Shown here: positions 37,211 through 59,465 of the stretch, piece by piece
Layout: each line of letters opens with the position of its first letter
Position numbering within the stretch: position 1 is the first letter of the stretch
NCBI GenBank assembly: GCA_965223505.1
Contig: CBDCWP010000013.1
Span: 96,001-160,000, forward strand
DNA: 64,000 nucleotides
Direction of reading: 5' to 3'
Origin: Planctomycetota bacterium
Lineage (GTDB): Bacteria; Planctomycetota; PLA2; JAEUHO01
Notes under the pieces: generated by a model
Seen by the model: the letters and a program-made list of their open reading frames with translations, nothing else
The model's database searches: none
Told to the model about the DNA's origin: nothing
Program-made: the position numbers and the translations under genes

Positions 37211-37226
37211 AGCAATTTTTATGCCT
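37211..37226 (-). promoter_or_regulatory. sigma54 -24/-12 promoter (asmA-BON)
   Basis: AGGCATAAAAATTGCT on the minus strand. Confidence 0.75.
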
Positions 37227-37280
37227 AACCCTAATAAAACGATGGAATACGAAAATGAAGATCTTGAGCAGTTTAAATAC

Positions 37281-37314
37281 GCTCAAAACGAGATAGACTC
37301 CTCTCATTTTGAGA
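37281..37314. promoter_or_regulatory. Tandem palindrome pair, putative bEBP enhancer (UAS)
   Basis: GCTCAAAACGAGA (37281) + TCTCATTTTGAGA (37302), 21-bp spacing. Confidence 0.7.
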
Positions 37315-37477
37315 GGAGTACTTCGGTTGAAAGCTCGACGTATGTCCTCCTCTCTCTCGAGATTAAAAAAGCTTAAGAGAAAGCGGCGCGCCTGTGGGAT
37401 GTTTCCAACAGACGTTGAGGCCCATCTCGCCCGCGCATTAGCCGGGGGCATTAATATACATGGGGATCTCGGCGTTT

Positions 37478-37493
37478 TGGCATGTTCTTTGCC
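37478..37493 (+). promoter_or_regulatory. sigma54 -24/-12 promoter (AI-2E)
   Basis: TGGCATGTTCTTTGCC. Confidence 0.75.
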
Positions 37494-37578
37494 TCGCAGC
37501 ACAGCCAAACGGCGCCATTGACGCCCATCATCACACAAGGGGCGCCTGAAGCTCCCCAGTACGCTTCGGAGGGAAAAG

Positions 37579-38673
37579 ATGCCCGACTTGTTCACCCAGG
37601 GGCTCCTACGGCTCGCCTCGATTTTCATTATTCTATGGGGCATCCGAGCTGCTCAGCCCATCGCCGCGCCTCTCATCTTTGCATTATTCTTGATGGGTGT
37701 TTGTTGGCCCCTCTATCGATGGGTTCAGCGTCTGGCGCCGCGAGTTGTGGCTGCGGCGATTGCCCTGCTCGTCTGTTTGATCGCGCTTGGAGGGATCGGC
37801 GGCGGTCTGTACTACAGCGGCGTTCAGATCGCGGGCGATTCCCAAAAGATGGCGCAACTGATCTCTTTGGAGGCCCTGCAACTGCGCTCCTTGGCCGAGG
37901 GGCTGGGGGTGCCGATTCCGCCCCCAGAGAAGGCCGCGTCTGCCGTCGGGACTTTTCTCAAGTACCTATCCTCGCAGGCGCTTTCAGCCAGCACAGGGCT
38001 TTTTCTGGCGCTCACTTTTTTGATGTTGGGTTTGCTCGAAGCGCCAGCCTTTCGCACGAAGCTCGTCGGCAATCGCGCCGATAGCGCTCTGCTTCACAGT
38101 CTGTCGGAAATCGCTTCAGATTTTCAGCGATATATCGCCGCCCGCACGTTTTTGGGGTTGTTGACCGGCCTCCTGAGCGGGCTCGGGGCCTGGGCCATTG
38201 GTCTCGACTATCCTTTTATCTGGGGTCTGACGAATTTTCTCCTCAACTATTTTCCAACCATTGGCTCGATTCTTGGCGTCATCCCATCCACGCTGTATGC
38301 GCTGGCCCAATCAGATGGCGGCGCAGGGTTGGCCCTGGCCGCGCTCGGCGTCATCGGCGGCGTCCAGCTCATCATGGGAAATTACATCGACCCGCTCGTG
38401 CAAGGGCGCGTCTTGTCGCTATCGCCTCTCATTGTGCTGTTATCAGTGGCGTTTTGGGGGTGGATGTGGGGTGTGGCGGGCGCGTTTATCGGCGTGCCGA
38501 TCACGATTGCGATCGTTTTGATCTGTCGACGTTTTGCGTCCACCCGGTGGATTGCCACGCTTCTGGCTGGGACCAACGATGACAACGCCACTCCGATTGT
38601 TTGCGATCTGCGCGTCACAAGGCGACAGCAAGAGGGCGATGTCCCGACATCAACAACGCTCGGCAATAAATAG
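37579..38673 (+). CDS. AI-2E family transporter
   Basis: LLNYFPTIGS, GNYIDP, LSPLIVLLSVAFWGWMWGVAGAFIGVP. Confidence 0.9.
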   Translation: MPDLFTQGLLRLASIFIILWGIRAAQPIAAPLIFALFLMGVCWPLYRWVQRLAPRVVAAAIALLVCLIALGGIGGGLYYSGVQIAGDSQKMAQLISLEALQLRSLAEGLGVPIPPPEKAASAVGTFLKYLSSQALSASTGLFLALTFLMLGLLEAPAFRTKLVGNRADSALLHSLSEIASDFQRYIAARTFLGLLTGLLSGLGAWAIGLDYPFIWGLTNFLLNYFPTIGSILGVIPSTLYALAQSDGGAGLALAALGVIGGVQLIMGNYIDPLVQGRVLSLSPLIVLLSVAFWGWMWGVAGAFIGVPITIAIVLICRRFASTRWIATLLAGTNDDNATPIVCDLRVTRRQQEGDVPTSTTLGNK

Positions 38674-40266
38674 AGAGGCGCAAGGCGAAGATGGGCCTTG
38701 GTGATAAACCAAGACAGCGTCCTCGATGTCCCGGTCAGCGACTGTAAACCGGTCGCGCTGTCTCAAGTATTCGCCCCAGGTTTCCACGATAAACGATTCG
38801 AGATAACGGCCAGTTTCAGCCGCATCAGCAAAAACGCCCCAGCGCAGGGCGCCGTCCCGGCGGCGTATCCTGCCGAGCTGACGGATGGCAAGAAAAAAAG
38901 CCTCACATTGATCTGGGTCAATCTGATAGTCGATGGTGACCAAAACCGGGCCTTTTTCATCATCGGGCTCTTCCTCTATGTCCGGCGTAGGCCAATGTCG
39001 GGAGGGGCTCGTGTCATAGTCGCTGCTGGTGACGAGTGGACAACGATGCGTCGCAGCCAGAGCAACCAGCGCGCCGCCCGCTGCGACCCACAGGGTTGCC
39101 CCAATGCCGATCCGGTCGGCCACCGCCCCCCAGAGGGCGCTGCCGCCGGCCATGCCCCCAAAAAACACGAGGATATAGGCGGCCAGGGCGCGGCCTCGCA
39201 CCCAGGTGGGCAAGGCCGCTTGGGCGCTGGCGCTGAACGACGTAAGCAAGATGAGCCAGGCGCTTCCGCCTAACAGCATGATCAGACAAAACAGGACTGA
39301 CGCCTTGACCAGCCCAGCGAGCGCGAGAACGAGGGCGAAGATCATGGTCGCTGTTGCAACGAGATGTTCCCGCGTGAAATGGGGTTGTAAACGCGGCAGG
39401 ACGAATGTGCTGAGGGACGCGCCAAGACCAAAGCAACCGAGCACGAGTCCATAGCCAGATGCGCCTTGCCCCAGGTGTTCGCGCACAACGAGCGGCAGCA
39501 TTGCCCAGAGGGCGCTGCCGCAGAGCATGAAGGCGCCGGCGCGCGCCATGACAGACCACATAGCCGGGGCGTGCCAAACGTAGCGGAGCCCAGCTTGCAT
39601 CGCGCCCCAAAAGTGTTCTGCCGGCAAGCGCGTTCGGCGTTGGGAACGCCGCCAGGTATAGAACACAACGATGACGCCCAAAAACGAGACGGCATTAAGT
39701 AGGAAGAGAACAGCCGGCCCCAATGCGGCCATGAGAAATCCGCCCAAAACGGGACCGAGCGCCCGCGCGACATTGACCGACGCCGTTTTGAGAGAAATGG
39801 CCCCTGACAGGTCTTCGCGCGGCACGAGTTCCGCCGTAACGGCGCGGCGAGCAGGCGAGTTGAAGGCCAGCCCAAGGCTCATCACCCCCGTTAAGCTCAG
39901 CAAGAGCCACGGGGTCATCACGCCGAGCCATACGGCGACGCCATAGCCCAGAGCGGTGAGACAGACCCAACTTTGCGTGATTAAGAGCAAGCGGCGTCGA
40001 TCGATCACGTCGGCCAACACGCCGGCCGGCAGCGCAAAGAGCACCATGGGGAGACTGGTCGCCACTTGCACCAGCGCCACCATGACAGGAGAAGGGGACA
40101 ACGTGGTCATCAGCCACGCCCCGCCGACGTCCTGCATCCAATTGCCAATATTGGATATGAAGGTTGCAATCCACAGCCACCGAAATACGGCGTGGCGCAG
40201 CGGACGCCAGGCGCTTGCCTGACGCTGCTCGTCTCCCTCGCCATGAGGCTTCGAACACGGCGCCAT
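38650..40266 (-). CDS. MFS transporter (MFS_3/transmembrane secretion effector) with C-terminal soluble domain
   Basis: FRWLWIATFISNIGNWMQ, GVLADVIDRRR, GPVLVTIDY, RRRDGALRWG; GGAGG RBS. Confidence 0.9.
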   Translation of the reverse strand: MAPCSKPHGEGDEQRQASAWRPLRHAVFRWLWIATFISNIGNWMQDVGGAWLMTTLSPSPVMVALVQVATSLPMVLFALPAGVLADVIDRRRLLLITQSWVCLTALGYGVAVWLGVMTPWLLLSLTGVMSLGLAFNSPARRAVTAELVPREDLSGAISLKTASVNVARALGPVLGGFLMAALGPAVLFLLNAVSFLGVIVVFYTWRRSQRRTRLPAEHFWGAMQAGLRYVWHAPAMWSVMARAGAFMLCGSALWAMLPLVVREHLGQGASGYGLVLGCFGLGASLSTFVLPRLQPHFTREHLVATATMIFALVLALAGLVKASVLFCLIMLLGGSAWLILLTSFSASAQAALPTWVRGRALAAYILVFFGGMAGGSALWGAVADRIGIGATLWVAAGGALVALAATHRCPLVTSSDYDTSPSRHWPTPDIEEEPDDEKGPVLVTIDYQIDPDQCEAFFLAIRQLGRIRRRDGALRWGVFADAAETGRYLESFIVETWGEYLRQRDRFTVADRDIEDAVLVYHQGPSSPCASLFIAERC

Positions 40267-40354
40267 GATTTCCTCCTTTGCAAGACTCCAGTAGCCAAGG
40301 GGAGCTATCCCATTTTGAGACAAGCCGCTCGTTACATGCCTGAGGCGGACCGGA

Positions 40355-40900
40355 ATGGCAGACCATTGGCGGGTGATTCACTTGCCGGAAACGCTGGTGC
40401 GGCTGTTGGGCCATGTCGCGAATTGGCATGAGGATTTTGCGGATCGTTGGTCCACCGGCGAGCATCGACGGGATCGCGACCAGTTTCTGGGCTGGATCGC
40501 CGAGCACCAACGGCGATACCCAATGCAACGCGTCGTGCTCTTAGGAGGCGACATCCATATCGGCTGTGTCCACGAGATCCGCTGGGCGCGGCAGGGACCT
40601 AAACTCTATCAGTTAATCTCAAGCGGCATTACGAACGATACGGGCGCGCTGACGCAATACCTCTCCACACTTATCATCCGCTTGAATCATGAGGCGAGCA
40701 CAGCCGATGGAGCGCTACGCGCCAAGGTGCGCTTGCTCAAAGGCGCGGGCCGACAACGCAGGAATCCCTATGGCGGCTTGAATGTCGGCGTCCTTGAAAT
40801 TGAGACCCCGACATCGGGAGACGCGCCAAACCTGCGCTTTTACCTTTACAGACACCGCGGAGAGGAGCCCGTCTGTGTCTACCGCTCAGTGCTGGTTTAA
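40355..40900 (+). pseudogene. C-terminal fragment of a PhoD-like metallophosphatase
   Basis: DFADRW, VVLLGGDIHIG, YQLISSGI, N.GVLEI motifs; N-terminal part and RBS absent. Confidence 0.6.
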
Positions 40901-40906
40901 CCATGA

Positions 40907-41268
40907 TCAGGAGAGTGACTCTGGCGCGCCATTGGGCTCCGGCTCTTCGGGTTGAGCCAAGATGGCGTTGGTGACCGCGCTGATCGCCACACTCCGTATC
41001 GCACCGAATAGACTGGTCTGCACGAAAGACAACAGAGGCGATTTCGAACTCGGCTGATCGGTTGTCTTTCGGGACGGTAATAGGCCTGACGCCATGAACC
41101 CGGCTAGGACGCCGGCGCCCACTGATGGCCAAGGATGCGCCTGTGTCCACGCCTGCACGTCGGCGGCCGTTTTCGCCGTCTCACGCATCTCGGCAAAGGT
41201 CTGCTGCATAGCTTGCTTTGCCTCCTCGGCTTGTCGCCGTAAGAACGCGGCTTCATCGCGCTCGTCAT
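40907..41268 (-). CDS. DUF883/DUF3618-like membrane-anchored stress protein (start uncertain)
   Basis: Helical region then WTQAHPWPSVGAGVLAGF; an ATGA overlap at 41268 is one base out of frame. Confidence 0.55.
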
Positions 41269-41753
41269 GCCTCTGTATGGTTAGCGCGGCCGGCGGCGCT
41301 GCGCCCAAATTGTAAGTGCTGTTGTTGCTGTCGTTCGGCATAATCTTGAACTCTCTGGGCATGGGCTCGCCCCTGAATACGGGATTTGCCGATAAGCACC
41401 GCAATCCCAAACAAGATGAGGAGTCCGAGCCCTACGATAAGTTGACCTAACCACAAGACCCCGCCAACAGCCGCGCCCACGCCTGAGGACAATCCGGTCA
41501 AAAAGAGAATCACCGCCATGACAAGGGCGCTCACAGCGGCGATGGCGCCTAGAATGCCAACGACCGCCCATAGGGCGGCTTGACGTCCGGACATCTTGAG
41601 AAGATCGAGTTGGGCCCGGATATAATGTGAAAAATAGGCGTACAGTTCGACGCCTTGCTGTAACAGGGTATGCAAGGCTTCTTGCGCCTCTGAAGCGGCG
41701 GTGTTAGGCGCTTCCGCCTCAGAGGACATTGTGGGATCTGCGTGCTCGCTCAT
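41265..41753 (-). CDS. Phage-holin-like (YqjE-type) membrane protein
   Basis: Two long TM helices after IRAQLDLLK; sits in a YqjD/E/K-like gene order. Confidence 0.65.
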   Translation of the reverse strand: MSEHADPTMSSEAEAPNTAASEAQEALHTLLQQGVELYAYFSHYIRAQLDLLKMSGRQAALWAVVGILGAIAAVSALVMAVILFLTGLSSGVGAAVGGVLWLGQLIVGLGLLILFGIAVLIGKSRIQGRAHAQRVQDYAERQQQQHLQFGRSAAGRANHTEA

Positions 41754-41810
41754 ATCTGACTCATTGCGTTAGTTGGTCGCTCTGGCATCGCCGCCAGCGG
41801 GCGTCTTCAA

Positions 41811-41841
41811 GCCTGAAAGCGCTCCAACAACGCTTTCAGGC
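41811..41841 (-). terminator. Hairpin downstream of BON gene
   Basis: gcctgaaagcg / cgctttcaggc. Confidence 0.55.
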
Positions 41842-41858
41842 CGATGGCGACCCAACGG

Positions 41859-42173
41859 CTACTTGACAATCAGGTTGTTTTTGACCTCTTGAACGCCTCG
41901 CACACTCCGCGCAATTTGTTCCGCTTTCTTAGCCTGAGCCATGGTGTCGACGAAACCGCCGAGTTGCACCGTACCCTTAAAGGTCTCAACTTCAACCTGC
42001 AAACCCTTGACCTCCTCGTCTGCTAGCAGCGCCGTTTTGACCTTTGACGCAATGACGCCGTCATCAATCATTTCTCCAGCGCTTTTTTGAGTTCGAGTCC
42101 CAGCGCAACCCAGCATCGTCGCGACGATGCTGACCAAGAGCGCGAGCATAATAGAAGAGATTACTTTCCGCAT
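41859..42173 (-). CDS. BON-domain lipoprotein (OsmY-like)
   Basis: LGC lipobox, SAGEMIDDGVIASKVKTALL, VETFKGTVQLGGFVD, VRGVQEVKNNL. Confidence 0.92.
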   Translation of the reverse strand: MRKVISSIMLALLVSIVATMLGCAGTRTQKSAGEMIDDGVIASKVKTALLADEEVKGLQVEVETFKGTVQLGGFVDTMAQAKKAEQIARSVRGVQEVKNNLIVK

Positions 42174-42283
42174 ACTTTATATCCTCCAAGCTAGCCAGTC
42201 AGTTAGTCTTGATACAAACGGCGCCGCCATTTGACATGGTCATCAACAATTCTGTCGAGGCCGAGCGCCAACGCCCGCATACA

Positions 42284-42610
42284 TTATCGACGGCACAGAA
42301 TGCCTAATAACAGCCCAATGCCGCCTGCGATCAGAAGGGATTGAATCGGCTTTTCACGAATTTGCCGCTCTAGCTGGCGCTCCCAATCAGCCGCTTGCTG
42401 GCGGCCTTGCTGATAATACTCAGAAGCAATGGCTTTACCTTGCTCGCCAAGGTGTTGCGCTTTTTCCGCAATATCTTCCCCAACTTGTTGAACTTTTTGG
42501 GCCACCTCTCTCCCGGCCTCCTGCGCCTGATCGCGCAGATGACCTATAGAATCTGGAGATGATGCCATTGTCGTCTCTTGAGGCGTCTCAGGATTGTACG
42601 GCGTTGTCAT
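42284..42610 (-). CDS. YqjD/ElaB (DUF883) family protein
   Basis: Amphipathic helices and C-terminal IREKPIQSLLIAGGIGLLLGILCRR. Confidence 0.85.
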   Translation of the reverse strand: MTTPYNPETPQETTMASSPDSIGHLRDQAQEAGREVAQKVQQVGEDIAEKAQHLGEQGKAIASEYYQQGRQQAADWERQLERQIREKPIQSLLIAGGIGLLLGILCRR

Positions 42611-42627
42611 TGATATTCCTTTCACAT

Positions 42628-42680
42628 AAAAAAGATCTAGATGTCGGATTCTGGCAAGGGCCGTGAGCCGACATCTAGAT
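42628..42680 (-). terminator. Intrinsic terminator-like hairpin
   Basis: atctagatgtcgg / ccgacatctagat 13-bp stem followed on the minus strand by a T-tract. Confidence 0.65.
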
Positions 42681-42751
42681 TCTTAGATAGACAATGTCCC
42701 TAAGCCGATTTAGCCATCACATCGCGTGCGCGCCGAACGCAAGTCTAGCAG

Positions 42752-42937
42752 TTAGTTTTGAGTTTCTTTTTTAATTTTGTCTCCAGCCTTCTCAACTTCT
42801 TCACCCGTTTTTTCAATCATATTATCAATTTTTTTACCCGCCTGTTCCGCAGGCCCTTCTTGGGCTTTGCAGGCGATTACTATGTTAAGTAGAGAAAGAG
42901 CGCATAACAACATGAACATACGCTTGATTAGTGACAT
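42752..42937 (-). CDS. Small stress lipoprotein (EGPAExAGKKID type)
   Basis: IAC lipobox then EGPAEQAGKKIDNMIEKTGEEVEKAGDKIK. Confidence 0.8.
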   Translation of the reverse strand: MSLIKRMFMLLCALSLLNIVIACKAQEGPAEQAGKKIDNMIEKTGEEVEKAGDKIKKETQN

Positions 42938-43021
42938 ATCTATTTTCCTCAAAAGTTGTCATACGCCATGCATGGCGTATAATCGTTATGTATGGCGAGC
43001 CCCATGTCCGTTATTGTGCGG

Positions 43022-43171
43022 TCACAATGCGCGACGTCCCTGTACGAGCCTGATGACGATCACGACAAGTGCGATTAACAGCAGGAGATGGAGAAGGCCG
43101 CCTAGGGTATAGGACGAGACCATCCCGAGTAACCACAAGATAAGCGCAATAATCACGATGGTCCATAACAT
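43022..43171 (-). CDS. lmo0937/DUF5670-like small membrane protein (49 aa)
   Basis: MLWTIVIIALILWLLGMVSSYTLGGLLHLLLLIALVVIVIRLVQGRR; AAGGAG RBS. Confidence 0.88.
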   Translation of the reverse strand: MLWTIVIIALILWLLGMVSSYTLGGLLHLLLLIALVVIVIRLVQGRRAL

Positions 43172-43284
43172 CGGCATTTCTCCTTTGCGAGGTCGTGTGG
43201 GCGAAACAGGACAATTCAACGTTTAGCCTACAAGGCTGCGCGCCTGCTCCCATGCCCAACGCAGGGTTTCAAACCTACTGAGTG

Positions 43285-43300
43285 AGCAAAAGGCGTGCCA
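43285..43300 (-). promoter_or_regulatory. sigma54 -24/-12 promoter
   Basis: TGGCACGCCTTTTGCT. Confidence 0.8.
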
Positions 43301-43410
43301 AAGTCTTAATACCTATATTCTAGAGCGTAGCCTCTAGGCGCTAACCTGGCATAAAGGTCGTCCAATGCGGTTTGCAGGTAGTGAGAATAACGAAGAATAT
43401 CGAATTCATC

Positions 43411-43444
43411 TCTCGTTTTGCAATCATACCCTCTCATTTTGAGA
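43411..43444. promoter_or_regulatory. Tandem palindrome pair, putative bEBP enhancer
   Basis: TCTCGTTTTGCAA (43411) + TCTCATTTTGAGA (43432), 21-bp spacing. Confidence 0.7.
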
Positions 43445-43687
43445 GAGTAATCGTCGACTGGTGTTGACGCGCCGATGGTCATGGTTGTTGCCGGATGACA
43501 ATCCGTTACCCAACCACGCTGGCGATATCGATAAGCAAGTCGCTCTCGATCCATCCGTCTCGCGCTTGTTCGATGCCGTCCGATATCGTTGTGGCGGCGG
43601 CGTGGGCATGGCGCTTGGCCAGGCGCTTGGGGCGCGCATTCTAGCGCGTCCGCGGCTCCGTCATGGCGTCATCTGTCGCGATGCCGT

Positions 43688-43703
43688 TGGTATATTTTTT
43701 GCT
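43688..43703 (+). promoter_or_regulatory. sigma54 -24/-12 promoter
   Basis: TGGTATATTTTTTGCT. Confidence 0.65.
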
Positions 43704-43967
43704 ATCTACCGAGATAAACCGTTATCCCTCGATCAACTCCAAGCTGAAAGGACGCCACTTATGCAGACCTCTCATCTAAGAGCGAGTGGCGCGGGCATGG
43801 CGCTGAGCGCCCCACCCAGATCCGTGTATCATCGTAATTTATGGGGTTGCAGGCGACCTTGCCCGTCGCACGTTGATCCCTGCGCTTTGCGCCCTTTACC
43901 GCTGCCAGAGCCTGTCCGCGCCATTCGCCGTTATTGGAGGGGCGAGGCGCTCAGATTGGGTTTGTGC

Positions 43968-44114
43968 CAAGCTTGGTCGATCGTCGATCCACTGATCGCC
44001 AACTGGGAAGCGTTGCCGCCTCCCGACTTGCCGAACTATGCGGCGGGCTCTTGGGGCCCAGAGGCGGCCAACTCGCTGCTTGAGCAAGATGGACGAACAT
44101 GGTATATGGCCTAA
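43968..44114 (+). pseudogene. zwf: C-terminal remnant of glucose-6-phosphate dehydrogenase
   Basis: AWSIVDPLIANWE...NYAAGSWGPEAANSLLEQDGRTW is the characteristic G6PDH C-terminus; the rest of the gene is absent. Confidence 0.8.
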
Positions 44115-44136
44115 GATGATGAGAGTGGAGCGTGTC

Positions 44137-45150: not shown

Positions 45151-45233
45151 GCGGCGCGCTCTCTACCTCAGCGCATAAAAGCTTATCCAGGGTGCGGGTC
45201 GGTCGTGTTGACGATTGCGGTCTCACCACGGCG

Positions 45234-45639: not shown

Positions 45640-45664
45640 CGACAGCATCAATTCAGGAGGCGCT

Positions 45665-51281: not shown

Positions 51282-51292
51282 GGGGGGTGGCG

Positions 51293-52786
51293 ATGAGACG
51301 ATGTCAGGACCATGAACGTGACATCGCATTTGGGCCGTTGAAGCATGGACGAACGGAGCGCCAGCAGTGGAAGGGTGTCTTGCTGTGCGGTTTTGTCGTG
51401 GTCATCGCGCTTGTGGGCGCCCCAGCTTGGGCGCAATCTGATCCCAACCCGCCTGCGGCGCGCAGTGAAGACGAACAACCTGGCGAGGAGCCGCAAGCGC
51501 CGAAGGAAGTCGACGTGCAACCCGTGGCGCGAGATGAGGAGATCCGCGATCGCTTACGCCACATTTTAGAAGCGACTGCATGGTTTCAAGAGCCGCAAGT
51601 TGAGGTGCGAGAAGGCGTCGTGTTTTTGGACGGGCGCACCGGCTCCAAGGAGTACAAAACCTGGGCCAAAGAGCTCGCCAGCCGCACCCAAGATGTGGTT
51701 GCAGTCGTCAATCGCATCGCCATTGCCGAGCGCTCGCCCTGGGACTTTTCGCCCGCCTGGCAAGGGCTCCGGCAATTGTGGCGCGACATCGTGCAGATGT
51801 TGCCTTTTGCCGGATTTGCGCTCGTCGTTTTAATCGTCACCTGGTGGGCGGCGAAATTGGCAAGTCGATGCGCTCGACGGTTTTTTCAGCGTCGCATCGC
51901 CAGCGCCTTGCTGCGCGATGTGGTCGCCAAAGCGGTGAGCCTGCCTGTCTTTTTAATTGGGGTCTACATCGTGTTGCACGTCGCCGGCTTAACCCGCTTG
52001 GCCCTCACCGTGGTGGGCAGCACCGGGGTCGCCGGTTTGGTGATCGGTATTGCCTTTCGAGATATCATGGAAAACTTTTTGGCCAGTCTTCTCATTAGTA
52101 TGCAGCGGCCCTTTCAGCTTCAAGATCTCATTGCAGTGGATGGGCATCTGGGTTTGGTGCAGAGTATGACCACGCGCGGCACGGTGTTGATGTCACTCGA
52201 AGGCAACCACATTCAGATTCCGAACGCCACGATTTATAAAAATACGATTCAAAACTATACCGCCAACCCCAACCGGCGAGGAGATTTTGTCGTTGGCATT
52301 GGCTACGATGACGCCATTCCAATGGCCCAGGAGGTGGTCATGCAGGTCTTGGCCGACCATCCAGCAATCTTGCGAGACCCCCCGCCCGCCGTGCTGGTGG
52401 ATGCGTTGGGGGCGGCAACCGTGAACTTGCGGGTGTTATTCTGGCTCGATGGCAAACAGCATGATTATTTCAAAACCAAGTCTTCAGTCATTCGCATGGT
52501 GAAACGAACCCTGCAAGACGCGAGCATATCCATGCCGGATGAATTGCGCGAAGTGATCTTTCCCGATGGCGTGCCGGTGCGGCTCCTGGAGGAGCGCTTG
52601 GATCGGCCTCGCGATGGAGGACGGCCAGGTCCGCCGCCGTCATCCGACGCGCCGGATCCGGTGTCCACAGCGGCGGAAGGCGACCTGGAGAGCGAGACGC
52701 CGCGCCTGCAAGATCAGGCGCGGCGGGCGCGTCTGCCAGAAGAGGGAAAGAACTTATTGGAGGACTCTGGAAATTCTCCCCGTTAA
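51293..52786 (+). CDS. BON-domain-containing MscS mechanosensitive channel
   Basis: VREGVVFLDG...VVAVVNRI (BON), GLVIGIAFRDIMENF, QIPNATIY, VGIGYDD. Confidence 0.9.
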   Translation: MRRCQDHERDIAFGPLKHGRTERQQWKGVLLCGFVVVIALVGAPAWAQSDPNPPAARSEDEQPGEEPQAPKEVDVQPVARDEEIRDRLRHILEATAWFQEPQVEVREGVVFLDGRTGSKEYKTWAKELASRTQDVVAVVNRIAIAERSPWDFSPAWQGLRQLWRDIVQMLPFAGFALVVLIVTWWAAKLASRCARRFFQRRIASALLRDVVAKAVSLPVFLIGVYIVLHVAGLTRLALTVVGSTGVAGLVIGIAFRDIMENFLASLLISMQRPFQLQDLIAVDGHLGLVQSMTTRGTVLMSLEGNHIQIPNATIYKNTIQNYTANPNRRGDFVVGIGYDDAIPMAQEVVMQVLADHPAILRDPPPAVLVDALGAATVNLRVLFWLDGKQHDYFKTKSSVIRMVKRTLQDASISMPDELREVIFPDGVPVRLLEERLDRPRDGGRPGPPPSSDAPDPVSTAAEGDLESETPRLQDQARRARLPEEGKNLLEDSGNSPR

Positions 52787-52842
52787 TCGATGACACAGGC
52801 GTGTCGTTGGACAACAAACCATCATGCATGAGGAGCATATCA

Positions 52843-53094
52843 ATGATCGACATTAATCAAGCCATGTCGAATCCGTCTGCCGTTTTTGCTTCGCCACACG
52901 AGGTGCTGCATCATCAGGCGTTATCTCACCAGCAAAAAATAGAGATATTGCGCCAGTGGGCGCAGGATGCGCAAGCTTTACAAGTCGCGGAAGACGAAAG
53001 CATGACAGCGCCGCAAACTCAACCTTCCAGCCGCTTAGACGACGTCATGCAGGCCCTGCATGAACTCGGTGAGGAGCGGGATCCCGCATCCTGA
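52843..53094 (+). CDS. Conserved hypothetical protein (83 aa)
   Basis: GAGGAG RBS; PSAVFASPHEVL...KIEILRQW...ALQVAEDESM. Confidence 0.75.
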   Translation: MIDINQAMSNPSAVFASPHEVLHHQALSHQQKIEILRQWAQDAQALQVAEDESMTAPQTQPSSRLDDVMQALHELGEERDPAS

Positions 53095-53125
53095 AAACCC
53101 TAGACTCTATCATAGTGAGGAAACC

Positions 53126-54493
53126 ATGATCATCATCAATCGCGCGTCTGAAATTGACCGTAGCGAAGCTTATAAAACGTACGCTGAGAGATTCGCCAGC
53201 GGTCAAATCATCATCCCTCCTTTATTGTTGTCCAAACACGAGCGCCGTTTACACGTGCGCCGCACGCTGCGCGAAGATCACCAACAACGCATCCACAATC
53301 GGCCCGAAGGAGCGCAAGAGAAATTTGAAAAACTCGCCGACTCGGCGTTTTCATTTTTCCGCGGCACGGCGCTGCTTTACTATCGCGACTACGCCGGTTC
53401 TGATGCGCATTTGCCGCTCGTCTTCACCATCGGCGATGTGCATCCCGAAAACTTTGGCGTCATGCCCAATGAGGACGGCGCGCCCTTTTTCGGCGTCAAC
53501 GATTTTGACGAAGCCTGGGTGGCGCCCTTTTCTTACGATATCAAACGCGGCGCGGTCGGCTTTTATATCACGGCAAAAGAACAAGGGTTCAAAAAAAAGC
53601 GCCGCCGCCACGTGGTGCGCGCGTTTGTCGGCGGCTATCTCAAGGCTCTGGAAGAATTCGCCCGCGACGATCGCGAAACGACGTTCCAGTTTCGCATTGA
53701 CAACAGTCCGAAAATGATCAGAAAGCTTTTGCAAGGGGCGGTGACCACCCGTAAGGCGTTTCTTGAAGAGTTGATCGATTTAGACAAGGGGCAGTTCATC
53801 CCTACGGATGAAATCGTGCCGCACTCCGGCCAGATCGAGAAATTTCAACGCGTCGTCAATAAGTACAAGGCCGAAACGGACATCGGCGGCCGGACCAAAC
53901 CCAAAACCTTTTTCAAGGTCAAAGACGTCGCGATCAAAACGGGCAGCGGCACCGCTAGTTTGGGTCTTGACCGCTATTTCGTGTTGGTCGAAGGCTGGAG
54001 TAAGGACATCAGCGATTGCGTCGTGTTGGAGATGAAGCAGGCGCGGCGCTCGGCGCTTTACGGACTCGTGCCCGCCAACGATTTTGAAGAGGCCGAGAAG
54101 GCCGAACAGATCGTCATGGCGCACCAAATTCACTTAGCTGGCGGCGACCCCTTTTATGGTCGAGCGGTCATCGATAACGAGAGCTTTCTGGTTCGCGAGC
54201 GCAGTCCCTTCAAGGACGATATCGACGTTGACGACTTGAGCGCAAGCGAACTCAAGACCTACGCGGCGATTTGCGGCCGCGCCTTGGCGCAGCCGCACGC
54301 CCGCTCAGACGAAGATACGGGCTTCATGCAAGGCGACGCTGAAAAGCGGATTCTTCAGTCGATTCAAGCTGACGTCTTCTGCGATGATGTCATCGATTTT
54401 GCCGAGCACGCGAGTAAGCGTATCTATGCGGATTACGCCTTGTTTCGGCGAGACCACGCCCTCGGGGTGTTCAAGTTCTTGCACGACGATTAG
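53126..54493 (+). CDS. DUF2252 family kinase-like protein
   Basis: FSFFRGTA, GDVHPENFG, VNDFDEA, GTASLG..RY, LEMKQA, LAQPHARS. Confidence 0.9.
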   Translation: MIIINRASEIDRSEAYKTYAERFASGQIIIPPLLLSKHERRLHVRRTLREDHQQRIHNRPEGAQEKFEKLADSAFSFFRGTALLYYRDYAGSDAHLPLVFTIGDVHPENFGVMPNEDGAPFFGVNDFDEAWVAPFSYDIKRGAVGFYITAKEQGFKKKRRRHVVRAFVGGYLKALEEFARDDRETTFQFRIDNSPKMIRKLLQGAVTTRKAFLEELIDLDKGQFIPTDEIVPHSGQIEKFQRVVNKYKAETDIGGRTKPKTFFKVKDVAIKTGSGTASLGLDRYFVLVEGWSKDISDCVVLEMKQARRSALYGLVPANDFEEAEKAEQIVMAHQIHLAGGDPFYGRAVIDNESFLVRERSPFKDDIDVDDLSASELKTYAAICGRALAQPHARSDEDTGFMQGDAEKRILQSIQADVFCDDVIDFAEHASKRIYADYALFRRDHALGVFKFLHDD

Positions 54494-54666
54494 CGCGCGT
54501 CAGGGTTTTTCATTCTCGGTCTCTCACAAATTGCAAATTCGTGATAATATCTCCTCTCAGGCCATCGGCATGTCGCCCCAGACAGCTCCCCGGCCAAGCC
54601 GACGCAGCGCCACGGCGTTAGGGGCGGCATAGCTATCCACGCTTATGCCAAAGAGGGACGGGAGAT

Positions 54667-55954
54667 ATGAACGATAATCGCGCCACCATCGTCGCTTCTG
54701 ATTATTTAGAGCAAAACGCCGAGGCGCTTGTCACCAGTTGGATTGAGTGGGTCAGAGGGCGAGTGCAGACGACCGTTATCAATGCGTTGCCGCACCGCGC
54801 GCTTCGAAATCACGTGCCGCCCGTGTTGCGGAGCTTGGCGAAATTTCTGCGCAATCCAATCGAACTCGCGCGCCAGGACCTCTGCAACCATTTGCGCCTA
54901 CACGGCCAGATACGCCGCGATCAAGGCTATTCGCTCGAAGAGGTCTTAGCTGAGTTTGAAGGCCTCGCCGATGTGGTGACGCGCGGCGTGAGCCAAGCGA
55001 TTCAGGAACATGCGAGCGACGCCGAATCTCACGATGTGCTCGAAGTCGCCAACCGGCTGGCGTCAGGCCTGCGCTCTGTCAGTTACATTGCAATGGGAAC
55101 CTATATTAGAGCCGATCAAGACAGAGAGCAATTGATGGCTGCAAGCCTTGAAGAGTTTTCTCGCGCCATCGCCCATGAGCTACGCAATCCTCTCAACACG
55201 CTAACTTTAAACCTGCAAGTCCTTCAAGAAGAATTGGCTGATCACGAAGACCTGGTGCACTTATATCGAAGCGATGGATGTGGCTGTTAATCGGTCGACG
55301 TATCTGCTCGACACTATTCGCATCTTGACGATTGCCGAAAGCGCCCGAGCAGGACAACGCTTAGTCACTTTAGAAGAAGCTCTCAATCGCATTCAGAAGG
55401 AGTTCAATGACGAAATTTTTCATTTAGGGCTGGAGTTTCGAGTCGAGTCGCCTCTCCCCGAGGTGAGCATGGAGGCAACCGTCCTGTATCTCGTGTTAGT
55501 CAATCTTGTTGGAAACTCGATCAAGTATTGTGATTGCGACAAAAGCGAGAGATGGGTTGCCGTTAGCGCCACAATCATTGAGGAGGAAAATGATTCGGGT
55601 TTCTGTGAAATCCAAGTTGAAGATAATGGCCTTGGCATTGGAGAGGAATATCTGTCACGGGTTTTCCAAAAAGGGTTTCGAGCCCACCCAGAGCACGCCC
55701 AGGGCACTGGGTCGGGGCTTTTCATCGTCCAACAAGCGCTCAATTCCCGAGGGGCAAGCATCTCTATCGAAAGCCATGAAGGCGAAGGCACAGCGGTAAA
55801 GGTGCGACTGCGTTGTCTCCACCCGGAAGCCGCGGTCTTGTCTGCCGATCAATTCCGTGTCGAAAGCCTCATGGGAGAGTTTATCTGGAATGAGCTAACC
55901 GCTGCCCCGGGGCTTCCGGATAATGAGAGACAAACAGAGGCCGAAGAGAGTTAG
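54667..55954 (+). CDS. Histidine kinase with RsbRD_N-like sensor, HisKA and HATPase_c; frameshift near 55261
   Basis: HGQIRRDQGYSLEEVLAEF, IAHELRNPL, NLVGNSIKY, VEDNGLGI, GTGSGL; the ORFs join on removing one T. Confidence 0.85.
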
Positions 55955-56016
55955 CGTCGGCGTCAAACGTGGATCAGAGACGGCGACTCAGCTGTCAACC
56001 GTCATCGTTGACGTGG

Positions 56017-56319
56017 TTAACGGAGTTGTTTTTGAAAAGTCTTTTGCACGATTTCCTGGACGCCGCTCGAAAGACGACCGCCCAACAAATGTCCTAAGAC
56101 AGGTATATCTCCCGTTACATGCACTAAGACGTCGTCCACTGACATCTCAATCCAAAAGCCTCTGCCGTCAAGTCGCACTTCGCTTTGGTCAGACGACCAC
56201 ACCGTTTGTCGAATCAGCATCCCAAGGAGATCGTGGACTTGCTGGACAACCGACTTCAGATCCCCACGCGCTTCTTCTAGAGTCTTATCGTGTTTTAACG
56301 ATAGGGCAATCAGAGACAT
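56017..56319 (-). CDS. Putative polyhydroxyalkanoic-acid-system (PHA_gran_rgn-like) protein
   Basis: LKHDKTLEEAR, W, VDDVLVHVTGDIP pattern. Confidence 0.65.
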   Translation of the reverse strand: MSLIALSLKHDKTLEEARGDLKSVVQQVHDLLGMLIRQTVWSSDQSEVRLDGRGFWIEMSVDDVLVHVTGDIPVLGHLLGGRLSSGVQEIVQKTFQKQLR

Positions 56320-56488
56320 ATTTCTTGCCTTTCTATCCTATGATAAGCGATATACATAATCTCATGAGACAAAGCCTCATTTTATCAAAGTTCTCGTGCA
56401 AAAACCATGCGCGCCAATGAGGCGGTGTAGGCCATTTTCACCCCTCGGCTCTATTTGCCCTTTCTTACAATCCGGTGCAAACAAAATA

Positions 56489-56504
56489 AGGCATAGAAAT
56501 TGCA
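56489..56504 (+). promoter_or_regulatory. sigma54 -24/-12 promoter
   Basis: AGGCATAGAAATTGCA. Confidence 0.7.
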
Positions 56505-56674
56505 GATATTCATTATATGATTTCTGCTCTATGCATGAATCATTTTGTATAGAGGTGAGTGGTGAATTCATATTGGCCGCAATTGCATGATGTGTTGCTC
56601 GTAGTGCGCCAAGTAGAAAATCCATCTACCCACCTAGTGGTGAAATCTAAACTTATACGTTAGGAGAAAGATCA

Positions 56675-56755
56675 ATGAGAGGTGGAACGCTTACGACAGT
56701 CGTTCTCATATTGGTTGGTATCGCTGCGGTCATTTTCATTGCCCGAGCGATCTAA
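56675..56755 (+). CDS. 26-aa single-TM small protein
   Basis: TAGGAG RBS; MRGGTLTTVVLILVGIAAVIFIARAI*; downstream of the sigma54 motif at 56489. Confidence 0.65.
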   Translation: MRGGTLTTVVLILVGIAAVIFIARAI

Positions 56756-56905
56756 ACAGAGTTTGTGACTCGCACAACATCCGGGCGGCGCATTGATGTT
56801 GCCTGGGATGTGATCTGAGACGCATAAGTTTTGGCAATGCGTCTCAGAATAAATCTCTCAAAAACCACCACGACATATACCGCTCGTCGGAACCAACGAG
56901 CTGCC

Positions 56906-57751
56906 CTATGCTGCAATACGCCGGTAGCGCGCCTGCGAGAAGCAATAAACGCCATAGGCGACAAGACCGAGCGCCACGATCCCTAGGAGCCACGGACCAT
57001 AAGGCTGGCGGGCCAGCGTGTCGAGCGCCCCGGAGAGGCCTTTGGCCTGACTCGGATCCGCCTGAAGGGCCGCGATTATAAAAAAACCGCCAATGATCGA
57101 AAACGTGACGCCGCGCGCCGAAAGGCCGAATTGGCCGATACGCTTGGCCCAGCGACGCTCCGTGGCCGACATCTCACCGGACTTGTAACGCTCCATGAAT
57201 TTTGCTTTGTAGGCTCGGTAGAAGTGATAGATGCCCACGCCGATCACAATTGCGCCGACAGCACCAACGAGCCACAGACCAAAGGGCTGGGACATGAGCT
57301 TCGCGGTCAATTCCTGCTTGGAGCTGTCGCCGCTACCGCCGCTACTGCCGCCGCTTATAGCCATGCGGCCAGCAAGAAACGCAAGGCCCGCATAGGTAAC
57401 GCCACTGACGGCATAGCCGATGCGAGCGATAATCCCCTTGGCGTCGGAGCCCTTGCCTTCCGGATCTTTAAAAGCCTGAACAAACCGCCAGATGACATAG
57501 CCAATGAGCCCCAGCGCCGTCAATGCAACCAGAATGCGGCCGAAGGGTTGTTGGGCAATCGTCTCAATCGCGCCTTTTGAACCCTCTGTGGAACCGCCCG
57601 CGCCAACGGCCGTCATCACGGCAAGCACGCCGACGATAACATAGACCACGCCTTTGGTGGCATAGCCAAACCGCGCCAAGGTTTCCACCTTATCGCCCGC
57701 AGCTTGAGTGGCCTGCTGCACCGCTCCGCTTGTAGAAGATACGTCCCTCAT
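56906..57751 (-). CDS. DUF1206 family membrane protein
   Basis: Three repeats: LARFGYATKGVVY, QPFG, SARGV.F, GL.GALDTL..QPYG. Confidence 0.9.
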   Translation of the reverse strand: MRDVSSTSGAVQQATQAAGDKVETLARFGYATKGVVYVIVGVLAVMTAVGAGGSTEGSKGAIETIAQQPFGRILVALTALGLIGYVIWRFVQAFKDPEGKGSDAKGIIARIGYAVSGVTYAGLAFLAGRMAISGGSSGGSGDSSKQELTAKLMSQPFGLWLVGAVGAIVIGVGIYHFYRAYKAKFMERYKSGEMSATERRWAKRIGQFGLSARGVTFSIIGGFFIIAALQADPSQAKGLSGALDTLARQPYGPWLLGIVALGLVAYGVYCFSQARYRRIAA

Positions 57752-57820
57752 GATTAAATCTCCATCATGTTTCCCCGGAATCCATGCCAAACAACTTTTA
57801 AACTGATGATGCTTGTATGT

Positions 57821-57836
57821 CGCAAATATTGTGCCA
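57821..57836 (-). promoter_or_regulatory. sigma54 -24/-12 promoter (DUF1206)
   Basis: TGGCACAATATTTGCG. Confidence 0.78.
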
Positions 57837-57906
57837 CGCTGCAGAACCGCAACTAATATTTGTGGAGCCTGCGTGATATTCTGATGAAATTGCTGCAATT
57901 GATGTA

Positions 57907-57940
57907 TGCCATTTTGAAACATCTTTGCATCATTTTGAGA
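57907..57940. promoter_or_regulatory. Tandem palindrome pair, putative bEBP enhancer
   Basis: TGCCATTTTGAAA (57907) + CATCATTTTGAGA (57928), 21-bp spacing. Confidence 0.6.
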
Positions 57941-58004
57941 GAGTCGCACGGGAAAATACATCTTATGACGCCGCTTTTATTCTCCACTTTTTAGGCTGGG
58001 CGTT

Positions 58005-58020
58005 TGGTATGTTTTTTGCT
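58005..58020 (+). promoter_or_regulatory. sigma54 -24/-12 promoter (metallothionein)
   Basis: TGGTATGTTTTTTGCT. Confidence 0.68.
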
Positions 58021-58180
58021 TTGTATCGCATCCTGAGGCTGGTTGTGTATTTATACCTTACCGTCCGCAGGCCCCTAAAGGAAATTAGCGTCAAGGCTTC
58101 ATCTCGTGACCTGTCAAGCAGTGATCTGATGAGCTGGTCTGCATGATGGTCTATTTCACTCAAACAACAAGGAAATCAAG

Positions 58181-58327
58181 ATGAAATGCGCTTGCCAACG
58201 TCAATGTATGTGCGAGGTAACCCCTGCTCAGAGTCTTGAACGAAACGGACACCTGTATTGCAGTGAAGCTTGCGCCAATGGCCACACCCGAGGAGAAGGT
58301 TGCGGTCACAGCGACTGTCGTTGTTAG
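58181..58327 (+). CDS. smtA: Bacterial metallothionein (SmtA/BmtA family), 48 aa
   Basis: MKCACQRQCMCEVTPAQSLERNGHLYCSEACANGHTRGEGCGHSDCRC*; KCAC..C.C, YCSEACA.GH and GCGH..C.C match SmtA; AAGGA RBS. Below the ORF-track size cutoff. Confidence 0.92.
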   Translation: MKCACQRQCMCEVTPAQSLERNGHLYCSEACANGHTRGEGCGHSDCRC

Positions 58328-58593
58328 GGCGGATGAACAACTTTATGTCTAGCTGTCCGCCACCGCCTTCCAGGCGGTGGCGGACGATATCGTTGTCGAT
58401 TCGCCGGACAACACGAGAGAATGTCCACATGCTAGCTCGATACCGACAGGCGCGGCTTTATCACCTCTGAGGCCATCTCTGATGTGCGTGTAGAGATGAC
58501 CAAAGCATCTTCAGGCCGCTAGGGGTCCAGGGCTAGAGGGGAGGCGGCGGTTCAATCCTAGTCGCCATAAAACCTTTTTGAAATGGAAAACAT

Positions 58594-59004
58594 ATGACTC
58601 AACCATGGCAGTCATCTCGCCCGGAAAAATGGCGGGACACCAAGTCAGTTCACGAAGTTAGCTCAAGATTAAACCGAGTTCGCAAGTTGACCCATCTACT
58701 CGATTCGAGCTTTGGTATACCAGGGACATCAGTTCGCTTTGGGCTCGATAGCCTTTTGGGTCTGGTCCCTGGCGTTGGCGACATCGTCGGCGCCCTATTG
58801 TCAGGCTATATTGTCTATGAGGCGCTGCGGCTTCGCGCCCCCAAGCGCCTTCTAGCGCGCATGATCGGCAACATTGCCATTGATACGGCAATCGGCGCGA
58901 TACCGATTGCCGGCGACCTATTCGACATTGTGTGGAAAGCCAACAGAAGGAATCTGAGGCTATTAAATTGGCATGTCAAGCAGAACGCAAACGACATTGA
59001 CTGA
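58594..59004 (+). CDS. DUF4112 family membrane protein
   Basis: LLDSSFGIPGTSVRFGLDSLLGLVPGVGD, GDLFDIVWKANRRN. Confidence 0.92.
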   Translation: MTQPWQSSRPEKWRDTKSVHEVSSRLNRVRKLTHLLDSSFGIPGTSVRFGLDSLLGLVPGVGDIVGALLSGYIVYEALRLRAPKRLLARMIGNIAIDTAIGAIPIAGDLFDIVWKANRRNLRLLNWHVKQNANDID

Positions 59005-59006
59005 TA

Positions 59007-59180
59007 TCAATATTTCAAGATGACATACAAAGCGTGGACAATTCCTGGAATAAAGCCAAATAGAGTAAGCAAGATATTGAGCCAAAAGTGACCTTTGAAG
59101 CCTACTTCAAAAAAAACGCCTAAGGGAGGCAACAAAATCGCAAACACGATTTTGATCGGGTCGGTAATGGTAACAGCCAT
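59007..59180 (-). CDS. yqaE: YqaE/Pmp3 family membrane proteolipid (57 aa)
   Basis: AILLPPLGVFFEVGFKGHFWLNILLTLFGFIPGIVHALYVI; AGGAG RBS. Not in the ORF track. Confidence 0.92.
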   Translation of the reverse strand: MAVTITDPIKIVFAILLPPLGVFFEVGFKGHFWLNILLTLFGFIPGIVHALYVILKY

Positions 59181-59255
59181 GCGCATCTCCTGTACTCAAG
59201 ATAAGGGAATAGTAAAGGCTTTACAGATTTACTCCGTCTTGCCTTATGATCAAGG

Positions 59256-59271
59256 AGCAAATCTTATGCCA
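59256..59271 (-). promoter_or_regulatory. sigma54 -24/-12 promoter (yqaE)
   Basis: TGGCATAAGATTTGCT. Confidence 0.8.
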
Positions 59272-59331
59272 AGATGTCGCAAGTCGGAGGCAATCCGCCA
59301 AAGGCTGACTGCTTAAATCCCTCAGCGACCC

Positions 59332-59365
59332 TCTCAAAATAAAAACGAAGTCTCTCAAATTAATA
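59332..59365. promoter_or_regulatory. Tandem half-conserved palindrome pair, putative bEBP enhancer
   Basis: TCTCAAAATAAAA (59332) + TCTCAAATTAATA (59353), 21-bp spacing. Confidence 0.55.
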
Positions 59366-59449
59366 GATGCGGTCAAGACCACGTTGAGGCAAAATACAAA
59401 TGGCGCGAGCGGCGCGAGCGAGCTATGAGGCGTTCGGCTGCATCGAATA

Positions 59450-59465
59450 TGGCATGGAACTTGCT
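59450..59465 (+). promoter_or_regulatory. sigma54 -24/-12 promoter (AI-2E-cox operon)
   Basis: TGGCATGGAACTTGCT. Confidence 0.8.

Follow-up and report, generated by a model that had tools for sequence, protein, structure and literature searches.

Predicted sigma-54 promoters head general-stress genes across a low-GC accessory island in a Planctomycetota bacterium

Introduction

General stress responses are the textbook case of control by alternative sigma factors of the sigma-70 family. Families typical of the RpoS and SigB regulons include OsmY/BON, ElaB/YqjD (DUF883), YqjE-like, CsbD/YjbJ, YtjA (DUF1328), YqaE (Pmp3), YebE (DUF533), GabD-type succinate-semialdehyde dehydrogenase (SSADH), catalase, trehalose synthesis, Usp and MscS proteins. 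Here we analyse a stretch of 64,000 nucleotides, hereafter the window, from a Planctomycetota bacterium (GenBank assembly GCA_965223505.1, contig CBDCWP010000013.1, here C13, positions 96,001 to 160,000), in which genes of such families stand behind motifs that resemble the -24/-12 promoters of sigma-54 (RpoN). We consider it likely that these motifs are sigma-54 promoters and that they form the first half of about 25 such promoters across a ~67-kb low-GC accessory stress island run by kinases and activators of its own. The island shares its target families with the regulons of RpoS (E. coli), SigB (Bacillus) and EcfG/PhyR (Alphaproteobacteria) and differs from them in its predicted promoters, which are of the sigma-54 class and would require an ATPase activator. 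Since the same job would be done by a different promoter class, the island is not a member of those regulons.

In design, the closest described systems are the NtrC-family regulons (NtrBC-glnAp2, ZraSR-zraP, AtoSC). These likewise combine a REC/AAA+/Fis-type HTH regulator with a partner kinase, upstream sites and -24/-12 promoters, but they comprise one to a few promoters, in contrast to ~25 in one island here, and serve nitrogen, zinc or acetoacetate genes instead of general-stress genes. The nif cluster of Klebsiella is a compact regulon with many sigma-54 promoters, some of them divergent, and a dedicated activator, NifA, which has a GAF domain; PspF-psp is a sigma-54-dependent stress response whose activator lacks a receiver. 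Both differ from the island in function and in activator type, and to our knowledge neither controls an OsmY/CsbD-type gene set.

A 2025 position-matrix survey reported predicted sigma-54 promoters to be enriched before MscS (COG0668), Usp (COG0589), chaperone and NtrC/ZraR-like genes in Planctomycetia (PMC12316311). The available portion of that survey, which cites an analysis of Pirellula sp. strain 1, offers COG-level statistics without an island, an activator assignment or an enhancer, and the terms CsbD, BON and general stress are not found in it. In the accessible part of Francke et al. (2011), the general stress response is mentioned only as the domain of SigB (PMC3162934). A 2026 paper assigns stress-adaptation roles to a plasmid-borne second RpoN in Bradyrhizobium, in the accessible part without the gene families of the island (PMC13207237). 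Searches of full-text literature for sigma-54 together with general stress, CsbD, OsmY, ElaB, BON, desiccation or trehalose returned no description of such a regulon, though supplementary promoter tables may list individual genes. The original prediction for this stretch, that the architecture had not been characterised, thus stands for experimental work in the literature searched; on the predictive side, sigma-54 promoters before MscS and Usp genes in Planctomycetia had already been proposed (PMC12316311).

Results

Strict -24/-12 motifs are concentrated in one part of the contig

We scanned both strands of the window (G000:C13:96001-160000), of the whole 267-kb contig C13 and of the 5.15-Mb assembly with the strict pattern WGGYAY-N5-TTGC. 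The window holds 15 matches against 1.51 ± 1.27 expected from 100 dinucleotide-preserving shuffles (maximum 4; none of the 100 reaches 15). All 14 motifs of the original prediction are among them; its plus-strand coordinates held, while the minus-strand sites begin 1 nt later than it had placed them (Table 1). It had also counted two motifs in the 2-32 kb half, where we find one strict site only. This consensus site, TGGCACGCGAATTGC at 15189-15203 (+), lies outside the island, 91 nt before a 117-aa open reading frame (ORF) with a weak match to a TubC_N docking domain.

Genome-wide there are 48 strict matches, 32 of them on C13 and 28 in C13:133-200 kb. The 14 predicted motifs are thus the first half of a larger set, and motif density is far from equal across the genome. 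In this 67-kb region the reversed, non-complemented pattern is absent (0 against 28), changing the spacer between the half-sites to 2-4 or 6-9 leaves 0-3 matches each, and shuffling inside 200-bp blocks yields a mean of 0.86 matches (maximum 4). For comparison, strict motifs number 0.36 per 10 kb in 1.2 Mb from other bacteria (80 loci, each centred on an NtrC-like activator gene), and no locus has more than 4; the 22-kb stretch of the original prediction carries 6.3 per 10 kb.

Aligned, the 28 island sites read TGGCAY-[A/G]A[A/T][A/T][T/C]-TTGC-T. Their flanks are unrelated, so the sites are independent and not copies of a repeat. The geometry is that of sigma-54 promoters, with GG and GC 10 bp apart in all 28, and TTGC is followed by A or T in 20. 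Although 81% of the stretch is coding, 25 of the 28 sites are intergenic (binomial p ~2e-15, on a gene list curated by hand from Pfam-supported ORFs, in which a few starts, such as the DUF1206 ATG at 57751, were picked with motif positions known), and every intergenic site has a same-strand gene downstream. The three intragenic sites (window-equivalent positions 72425, 96044 and 103220) are of the weaker forms TGGTAT or AGGCAT and are unlikely to be promoters. Each of the 14 sites in the window precedes a same-strand ORF start by 37-244 nt, counted from the motif start, and 12 of them form six divergent pairs; four more pairs lie beyond the window, for 10 in total. Both the orientation into adjacent transcription units and the prevalence of divergent pairs are therefore as originally described.

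Table 1. Predicted promoter elements, candidate activator-binding sites and activator genes (window coordinates unless prefixed C13; distances run from motif start to gene start)
Feature	Position	Strand	Remarks
Predicted -24/-12 element AGGCATAAAAATTGC	37212..37226	-	AsmA-family gene, 78 nt
Predicted -24/-12 element	37478..37492	+	AI-2E family transporter, ATG 37579 (101 nt)
Predicted -24/-12 element	43286..43300	-	Heads DUF5670, 66-aa ORF, DUF883, BON, Holin-X-like, 167-aa ORF (43219 down to 40907)
Predicted -24/-12 element	43688..43702	+	117-aa ORF, ATG 43761, then YegS/DAGK-type lipid kinase
Predicted -24/-12 element	45625..45639	-	122-aa ORF of unknown family, GTG 45602 (37 nt)
Predicted -24/-12 element	47491..47505	-	104-aa and 85-aa ORFs of unknown family, then trypsin-like peptidase (45665-46831)
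Predicted -24/-12 element	47622..47636	+	PRC-barrel protein, ATG 47866 (244 nt)
Predicted -24/-12 element	50113..50127	-	SSADH, ATG 50037 (90 nt; ribosome-binding site AAGGAG)
Predicted -24/-12 element	50199..50213	+	Heads transglutaminase-like (50361), BON-MscS fusion (51278), DUF2252 (53060), RsbRD_N histidine kinase (54667-55954)
Predicted -24/-12 element (AGG form)	56489..56503	+	26-aa hydrophobic peptide ORF 56675-56755, then hairpin 56818-56846
Predicted -24/-12 element	57822..57836	-	DUF1206 membrane protein, probable start ATG 57751 (85 nt)
Predicted -24/-12 element	58005..58019	+	SmtA-type prokaryotic metallothionein, ATG 58181 (176 nt), then DUF4112 (58594)
Predicted -24/-12 element	59257..59271	-	Pmp3/YqaE proteolipid, ATG 59186 (85 nt)
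Predicted -24/-12 element	59450..59464	+	Second AI-2E transporter, ATG 59571 (121 nt), then COX2-cytochrome c (60708)
Perfect palindrome CTCTCA-TTT-TGAGAG	37301..37315		Between 37212(-) and 37478(+); candidate activator-binding site
Perfect palindrome CTCTCA-TTT-TGAGAG	43431..43445		Between 43286(-) and 43688(+)
Perfect palindrome CTCTCA-TTA-TGAGAG	47809..47823		~300 nt upstream of 47491(-), within leader of 47622(+)
Palindrome-like site, 2 mismatches to CTCTCA-N3-TGAGAG	59352..59366		Between 59257(-) and 59450(+)
Stress island, window part (low-GC)	33528..64000		Continues to ~C13:200 kb (window coordinate ~104,000), with 14 more strict sites
EBP1	C13:165866-167221	-	REC + Sigma54_activat + HTH_8 (PF00072, PF00158, PF02954)
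EBP2	C13:196752-198101	-	REC + Sigma54_activat + HTH_8 (PF00072, PF00158, PF02954)

The genes behind the motifs form a general-stress kit

Pfam searches bear out the claim that the targets are a general-stress gene set. In the window they identify AsmA, two AI-2E transporters, DUF5670, BON (OsmY-like by NCBIfam), YegS/DAGK, a trypsin-like peptidase, PRC-barrel, SSADH, transglutaminase-like, BON-MscS, DUF2252, the RsbRD_N kinase, DUF1206, metallothionein, DUF4112 and Pmp3/YqaE; the match to the DUF883 C-terminal zipper is weak (19.6 bits), and the Holin-X/YqjE-like protein falls just below the cut-off. Beyond the window follow CsbD, DUF1328, Usp, MscS, two PRC-barrel and two YihY/BrkB proteins, catalase, DUF3618, a clear Holin-X, DUF533, a potassium-channel-like protein and a trehalose synthase TreS at 642.6 bits against a cut-off of 678. 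The kit includes three MscS genes. Most of these families depend on RpoS in E. coli or on SigB in Bacillus. When 39 island proteins were searched against the rest of the genome, 29 had no tblastn homologue (E < 1e-6, at least half length), so the island supplies this kit rather than duplicating it: most components of this general-stress, osmotic and desiccation protection set occur nowhere else in the genome. ORFs at 40355, 40910, 45237, 47156, 47657 and 55923 had no Pfam match, and no Rfam family reached gathering score in window 33-64 kb.

We also looked for promoters of other classes. GGAAC-N16/17-CGTT, which we take to be the EcfG-type consensus, does not occur in window 33-64 kb and has its sole window match at 8644; no model of RpoS- or SigB-type motifs was applied. 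For the sigma-70-like consensus there are 19 sites, against 11.6 ± 3.1 in shuffles, and few of them lie in promoter gaps. The best in the stretch, TTGTCA-16-TATAAT (11/12) at 42956-42983 (+), is antisense within the minus-strand run of small stress genes.

Three smaller features lie among the target genes. The 117-aa ORF at 43761-44111 (+), which overlaps the start of the lipid-kinase ORF, matches the C terminus of glucose-6-phosphate dehydrogenase (PF02781) over its final 47 residues and could be either a remnant or a small domain protein. The 26-residue hydrophobic ORF at 56675-56755 (+), of a size that ORF lists would miss, has a good ribosome-binding site 186 nt after the motif at 56489(+) and is a candidate tiny membrane stress peptide. 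On the same strand after the second AI-2E transporter (59571-64000 and L002:1-3450) lie COX2-cytochrome c, COX1 and a further cytochrome c gene, and this terminal oxidase may be co-induced with the stress genes.

The island encodes its own activators and kinases

The genome has ~23 strong sigma-54 activator genes, none with internal stops. Three are on C13, and two of those, EBP1 and EBP2 (Table 1), lie inside the island; they are paralogous (66% identical). EBP1, of the ~451-aa size class, retains the GAFTGA loop (GYEKGAFTGA) and the receiver Asp in alignment. Its best NCBIfam models are ntrC, AtoC and ZraR, and its identity to ZraR and NtrC is 42-46%, but it scores below every equivalog cut-off (ntrC 438.8 against 558.6) and so was not assigned as an orthologue of a named regulator. 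Its closest metagenome relative is 94% identical, eighteen clusters follow at 76-81%, and the best 120 are all at least 62% identical; one close relative is named Candidatus Tectomicrobia. Among 400 Planctomycetota genomes no orthologue exceeds 48% identity. A contig search with EBP1 gave nothing above 49% among the matches listed, which is no evidence of rarity, and a plasmid search gave generic ZraR/NtrC-level identity only. As observations on the wider genome, one strict site lies ~500 nt upstream of groES on C13, and on another contig (G000:C10:35384-38241) a sigma-54 activator gene is directly upstream of dnaK on the same strand.

The motif at 71948(-) heads csbD, DUF1328 and EBP1 as the third gene. 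Its divergent partner at 72161(+) heads a gene for a CDP-alcohol phosphatidyltransferase and, after it, the gene for HK1, a 375-aa PAS-HisKA-HATPase kinase. With EBP1 and HK1 behind a divergent pair of sigma-54-type promoters, the system would induce its own sensor and activator. The motif at 100216(-) heads genes for a VWA protein, a PP2C protein, a kinase-like protein and a 1108-aa GAF hybrid kinase, and a HATPase fragment lies at L002:13037-13213. The expectation of an enhancer-binding protein (EBP) as the partner of RpoN is thus matched by two NtrC-type activators and by kinases inside the island, together with the GAFTGA loop of EBP1.

The motif at 91561(+) stands 58 nt before a gene for a 512-aa RpoD/RpoS-like sigma factor that scores below both the RpoS and the RpoD model cut-offs. 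This recalls the Rrp2-RpoN-RpoS cascade of Borrelia, in which an NtrC-type activator and sigma-54 drive a sigma-70-family sigma gene (PMC3037356). It differs in that the predicted sigma-54 promoters of the island would also drive effector genes directly.

A candidate enhancer lies between paired promoters

Within 260 nt upstream, TCTCAAA (either strand) occurs in 16 of the 28 upstream regions, against 2.2 expected from island background. It is half of the palindrome CTCTCA-N3-TGAGAG, of which the window has three perfect copies (Table 1) and C13 a further one at C13:174176. Allowing up to two mismatches, C13 has 10 such sites, every one of them inside the island, and the remaining 5.09 Mb has 40. 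Eight of the 10 precede a strict site by 55-260 nt, mostly between paired promoters, and one lies 80 nt before EBP2. A second activator specificity, of EBP2 as opposed to EBP1, is possible.

A single rpoN is present, in broken form

The assembly, at 92% completeness, has one rpoN, on the minus strand of G000:C37:17543-20944 (L001, ~1489-2960), and no second copy was found. One 321-codon frame encodes most of the core-binding domain together with the DNA-binding domain and the RpoN box. The presumption that the genome has RpoN agrees with the intact DNA-binding domain and RpoN box, but the gene is frame-broken as assembled. In an independent assembly of this sample (X2), a short contig (record 13) has seven 1-2-base deletions and a 137-nt skip at the break region, while the other X2 pieces listed match the assembly without gaps; applying the first deletion extends the frame from 321 to 451 codons. 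Full-length RpoN relatives have 512-716 aa, and each of the five that have an organism name carries the label Planctomycetota, Planctomycetes or Planctomycetales. The breaks are probably assembly errors in a low-complexity stretch, with a pseudogene as the alternative.

The island has no counterpart in relatives

GC content is 0.65-0.70 in the first 65 kb of C13, like the other contigs, then falls over ~30 kb to 0.52-0.60 and stays low to the contig end. A 20-kb high-GC piece of C13 has kilobase-long matches of 72-79% identity in all of 20 relatives, 12 from the same family and 8 from the same order; a 20-kb island piece has no DNA match in the same 20 except for the SSADH gene, in a few genomes. 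Low GC without a counterpart in relatives makes the island accessory, and with deviant composition and absence from relatives both observed, it is most simply acquired DNA. The original prediction that "this lineage" runs its stress regulon through RpoN is accordingly too broad: the motif cluster is confined to the low-GC accessory stretch and is absent from relatives. None of the genome's 17 matches to tyrosine integrases is on C13 (transposases and direct repeats were not searched), and no credible tRNA was found in C13:60-212 kb. The sole ARAGORN call in the window, a 'tRNA-???' with the four-base anticodon catc at 6042-6132 (-), lies inside a FAD-binding oxidoreductase ORF (4846-6606) and is probably false.

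Related loci carry motifs of more than one promoter class

The closest homologue of the BON-MscS protein outside this genome is at a metagenome locus (L106). It is 74% identical, has TGGTATGGAATTTGCT 88 nt before its ATG and is divergent from the gene for a PAS kinase of 375 aa, which aligns gap-free with HK1 over 334 residues at 50% identity. Motif conservation upstream of orthologues is thus found at the closest homologue, but it does not extend to more distant ones or to the host's relatives (see Discussion). One metagenome homologue at 49-52% identity has GGAAC-N16/17-CGTT instead of a sigma-54 motif. A plasmid of Roseobacter litoralis, pROLI81 (13155-38405, L112), carries SSADH, entericidin, BON-MscS, three MscS, PRC-barrel and STAS genes, with GGAAC-N16-CGTT before two operons and no sigma-54 motif. 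By its motifs, this set is a natural counterpart apparently wired to an ECF-type sigma factor. Both cases fit the premise that such genes are normally under sigma-70-family factors.

The megaplasmid rpoN2 locus of Ralstonia solanacearum (L113) has an activator gene followed by DUF1328, a small ORF and YihY/BrkB, to which csbD-DUF1328-EBP1 and two BrkB genes correspond in the island. Sigma-54-like motifs lie there 79 nt before rpoN2 and also before DUF1328-hyp-BrkB and two small ORFs, and two activator genes adjoin. The Ralstonia locus differs in being much smaller and in having its own second rpoN, of which the island has none, and its activator is only 40% identical to EBP1. The available portion of the rpoN2 paper contains nothing on stress (PMC4371752).

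The consensus is abundant in some lineages among 300 Planctomycetota genomes; G319, for instance, has 173 sites where the control has 3. The 2.9-Mb genome G044 has 49 strict sites, most of them identical (TGGCACGATATTTGCT) and dispersed over contigs. G044 and G319 look like cases of very large or repeat-borne sets of sigma-54 sites. The motif-rich genomes G319, G263, G044, G118 and G213 were considered as donors of the island and rejected, as their BON-MscS homologues are at most 29% identical and their sites are dispersed, not clustered. The protein Atlas returned generic neighbours only.

Discussion

Our reading of the island draws on motif statistics and positions, gene families, activator domains with the GAFTGA loop, absence from relatives and one conserved related locus. 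Together these make a sigma-54/activator regulon over general-stress genes credible. We infer the phosphotransfer partners, the activator-binding site, the trigger and transcription itself from sequence. In the mechanism that we propose, the island kinases (the cytoplasmic PAS kinase HK1, the RsbRD_N kinase and the GAF hybrid kinase) would phosphorylate EBP1 and EBP2. The activators would bind upstream sites between back-to-back promoters, probably CTCTCA-N3-TGAGAG and its half-sites, and, using ATP, would open promoter complexes of the host sigma-54 holoenzyme. With the enhancer placed between divergent promoters, one enhancer could in this way fire two opposite operons. The csbD-DUF1328-EBP1 operon and HK1, behind their divergent promoter pair, would provide positive feedback, and the RpoD/RpoS-like sigma gene behind its sigma-54-type promoter could form a second regulatory tier.

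Several observations weigh against this reading. As assembled, rpoN is spread over three frames: two of them, upstream of the 321-codon frame, contain region I and the beginning of the core-binding domain. After all listed X2 changes are applied (frame of 449-451 aa), region I is still out of frame. The RsbRD_N-HisKA-HATPase kinase at 54667-55954 (+) is likewise split, into ORFs 54667-55290 and 55274-55954 with one frame shift inside HisKA, through either an assembly indel or a pseudogene. No exact palindrome is common to at least 5 of 15 promoter regions, and the promoters 45625, 50113/50199, 75182/75253 and 91561 have no recognisable palindrome site. The position weight matrix was built from the same sites that it scores. 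Outside C13 the genome has 16 strict motifs against 65 for the reversed control, which is no excess; with ~20 activator genes outside C13, the host's own sigma-54 promoters would either be scarce or deviate from the classical consensus. Neither a strict nor a relaxed motif lies within 1.5 kb of host dnaK or groES2. None of 29 relatives of the same family and order shows a strict-motif excess or cluster, and none of five BON-MscS homologues at 49-52% identity has a sigma-54 motif. The host's own family, with no motif excess, also departs from the Planctomycetia survey (PMC12316311).

Could the motifs be something other than sigma-54 promoters? Their spacers are A/T-rich, as is island intergenic DNA, which would suit an artefact of chance or composition; the block shuffles, the window shuffles and the absence of the reversed pattern rule this origin out, and we give it practically no credence. 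That the sites belong to another DNA-binding protein, a repressor or a different type of promoter that merely resembles the sigma-54 consensus, would agree with the lack of a consensus excess in the rest of the genome. Such a protein would have to explain matches that span both the -24 and the -12 blocks, a spacer held strictly at N5, an asymmetric site whose strand follows the downstream gene, and sigma-54 activators encoded among the targets, and we think it very unlikely.

The state and ownership of the island raise two further alternatives. It could be a decaying, silent acquisition, whose promoters look intact while the host sigma-54 and at least one island kinase are pseudogenes. The three frames of rpoN, the split RsbRD_N kinase, the G6PD_C-like 117-aa remnant at 43761-44111 and the HATPase fragment all agree with decay. 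On the other hand, 25 near-consensus sites would not be expected to last without selection, the 23 activator genes lack internal stops, the indels of the independent contig at the rpoN breaks point to assembly error, and RpoN of the relatives is full-length; we consider decay quite improbable. Alternatively, the regulon may be real and the host misassigned, with the low-GC part of C13 coming from another organism, such as a proteobacterium or acidobacterium, and joined by assembly or binning. This would account for the drop in GC (0.52-0.60 against 0.68 in the first 65 kb and the other contigs), for island DNA that the 20 relatives lack except for SSADH, for the 29 of 39 proteins without a homologue elsewhere in the genome, for the missing EBP1 orthologue above 48% among the 400 Planctomycetota genomes and for a host family without an excess of the consensus. 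CsbD is present in only one of five other Planctomycetota genomes checked, and BON-MscS fusions are commonest in Pseudomonadota in the protein Atlas. Horizontal acquisition fits the same features equally well. The island shares one contig with 65 kb that match all 20 relatives at 72-79% identity, GC declines gradually over ~30 kb with no sharp joint, and the contamination estimate is 1.66%, so that a foreign host, while it retains some weight, seems unlikely to us. We therefore prefer an acquired island under sigma-54 control in its present host.

A broader interpretation is possible but doubtful. The island may represent a portable, self-contained stress response with its own sensors, a member of an abundant NtrC-type activator family, enhancers and ~25 sigma-54 promoters, which would need only the RpoN of its recipient; it would then be a third, so far undescribed general-stress architecture beside RpoS/SigB and EcfG. 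Because sigma-54 promoters are silent without an activator, such a system could move safely between hosts, which would favour this architecture.

The island offers clean test material, with short divergent promoter regions, a candidate enhancer and two paralogous activators. If the sigma-54 reading is confirmed, it would show that an entire stress regulon can switch to another class of promoter, and the tight off-state of sigma-54 promoters would make such a regulon transferable between hosts. A large, unnamed family of activators from environmental bacteria would thereby gain a definable function.

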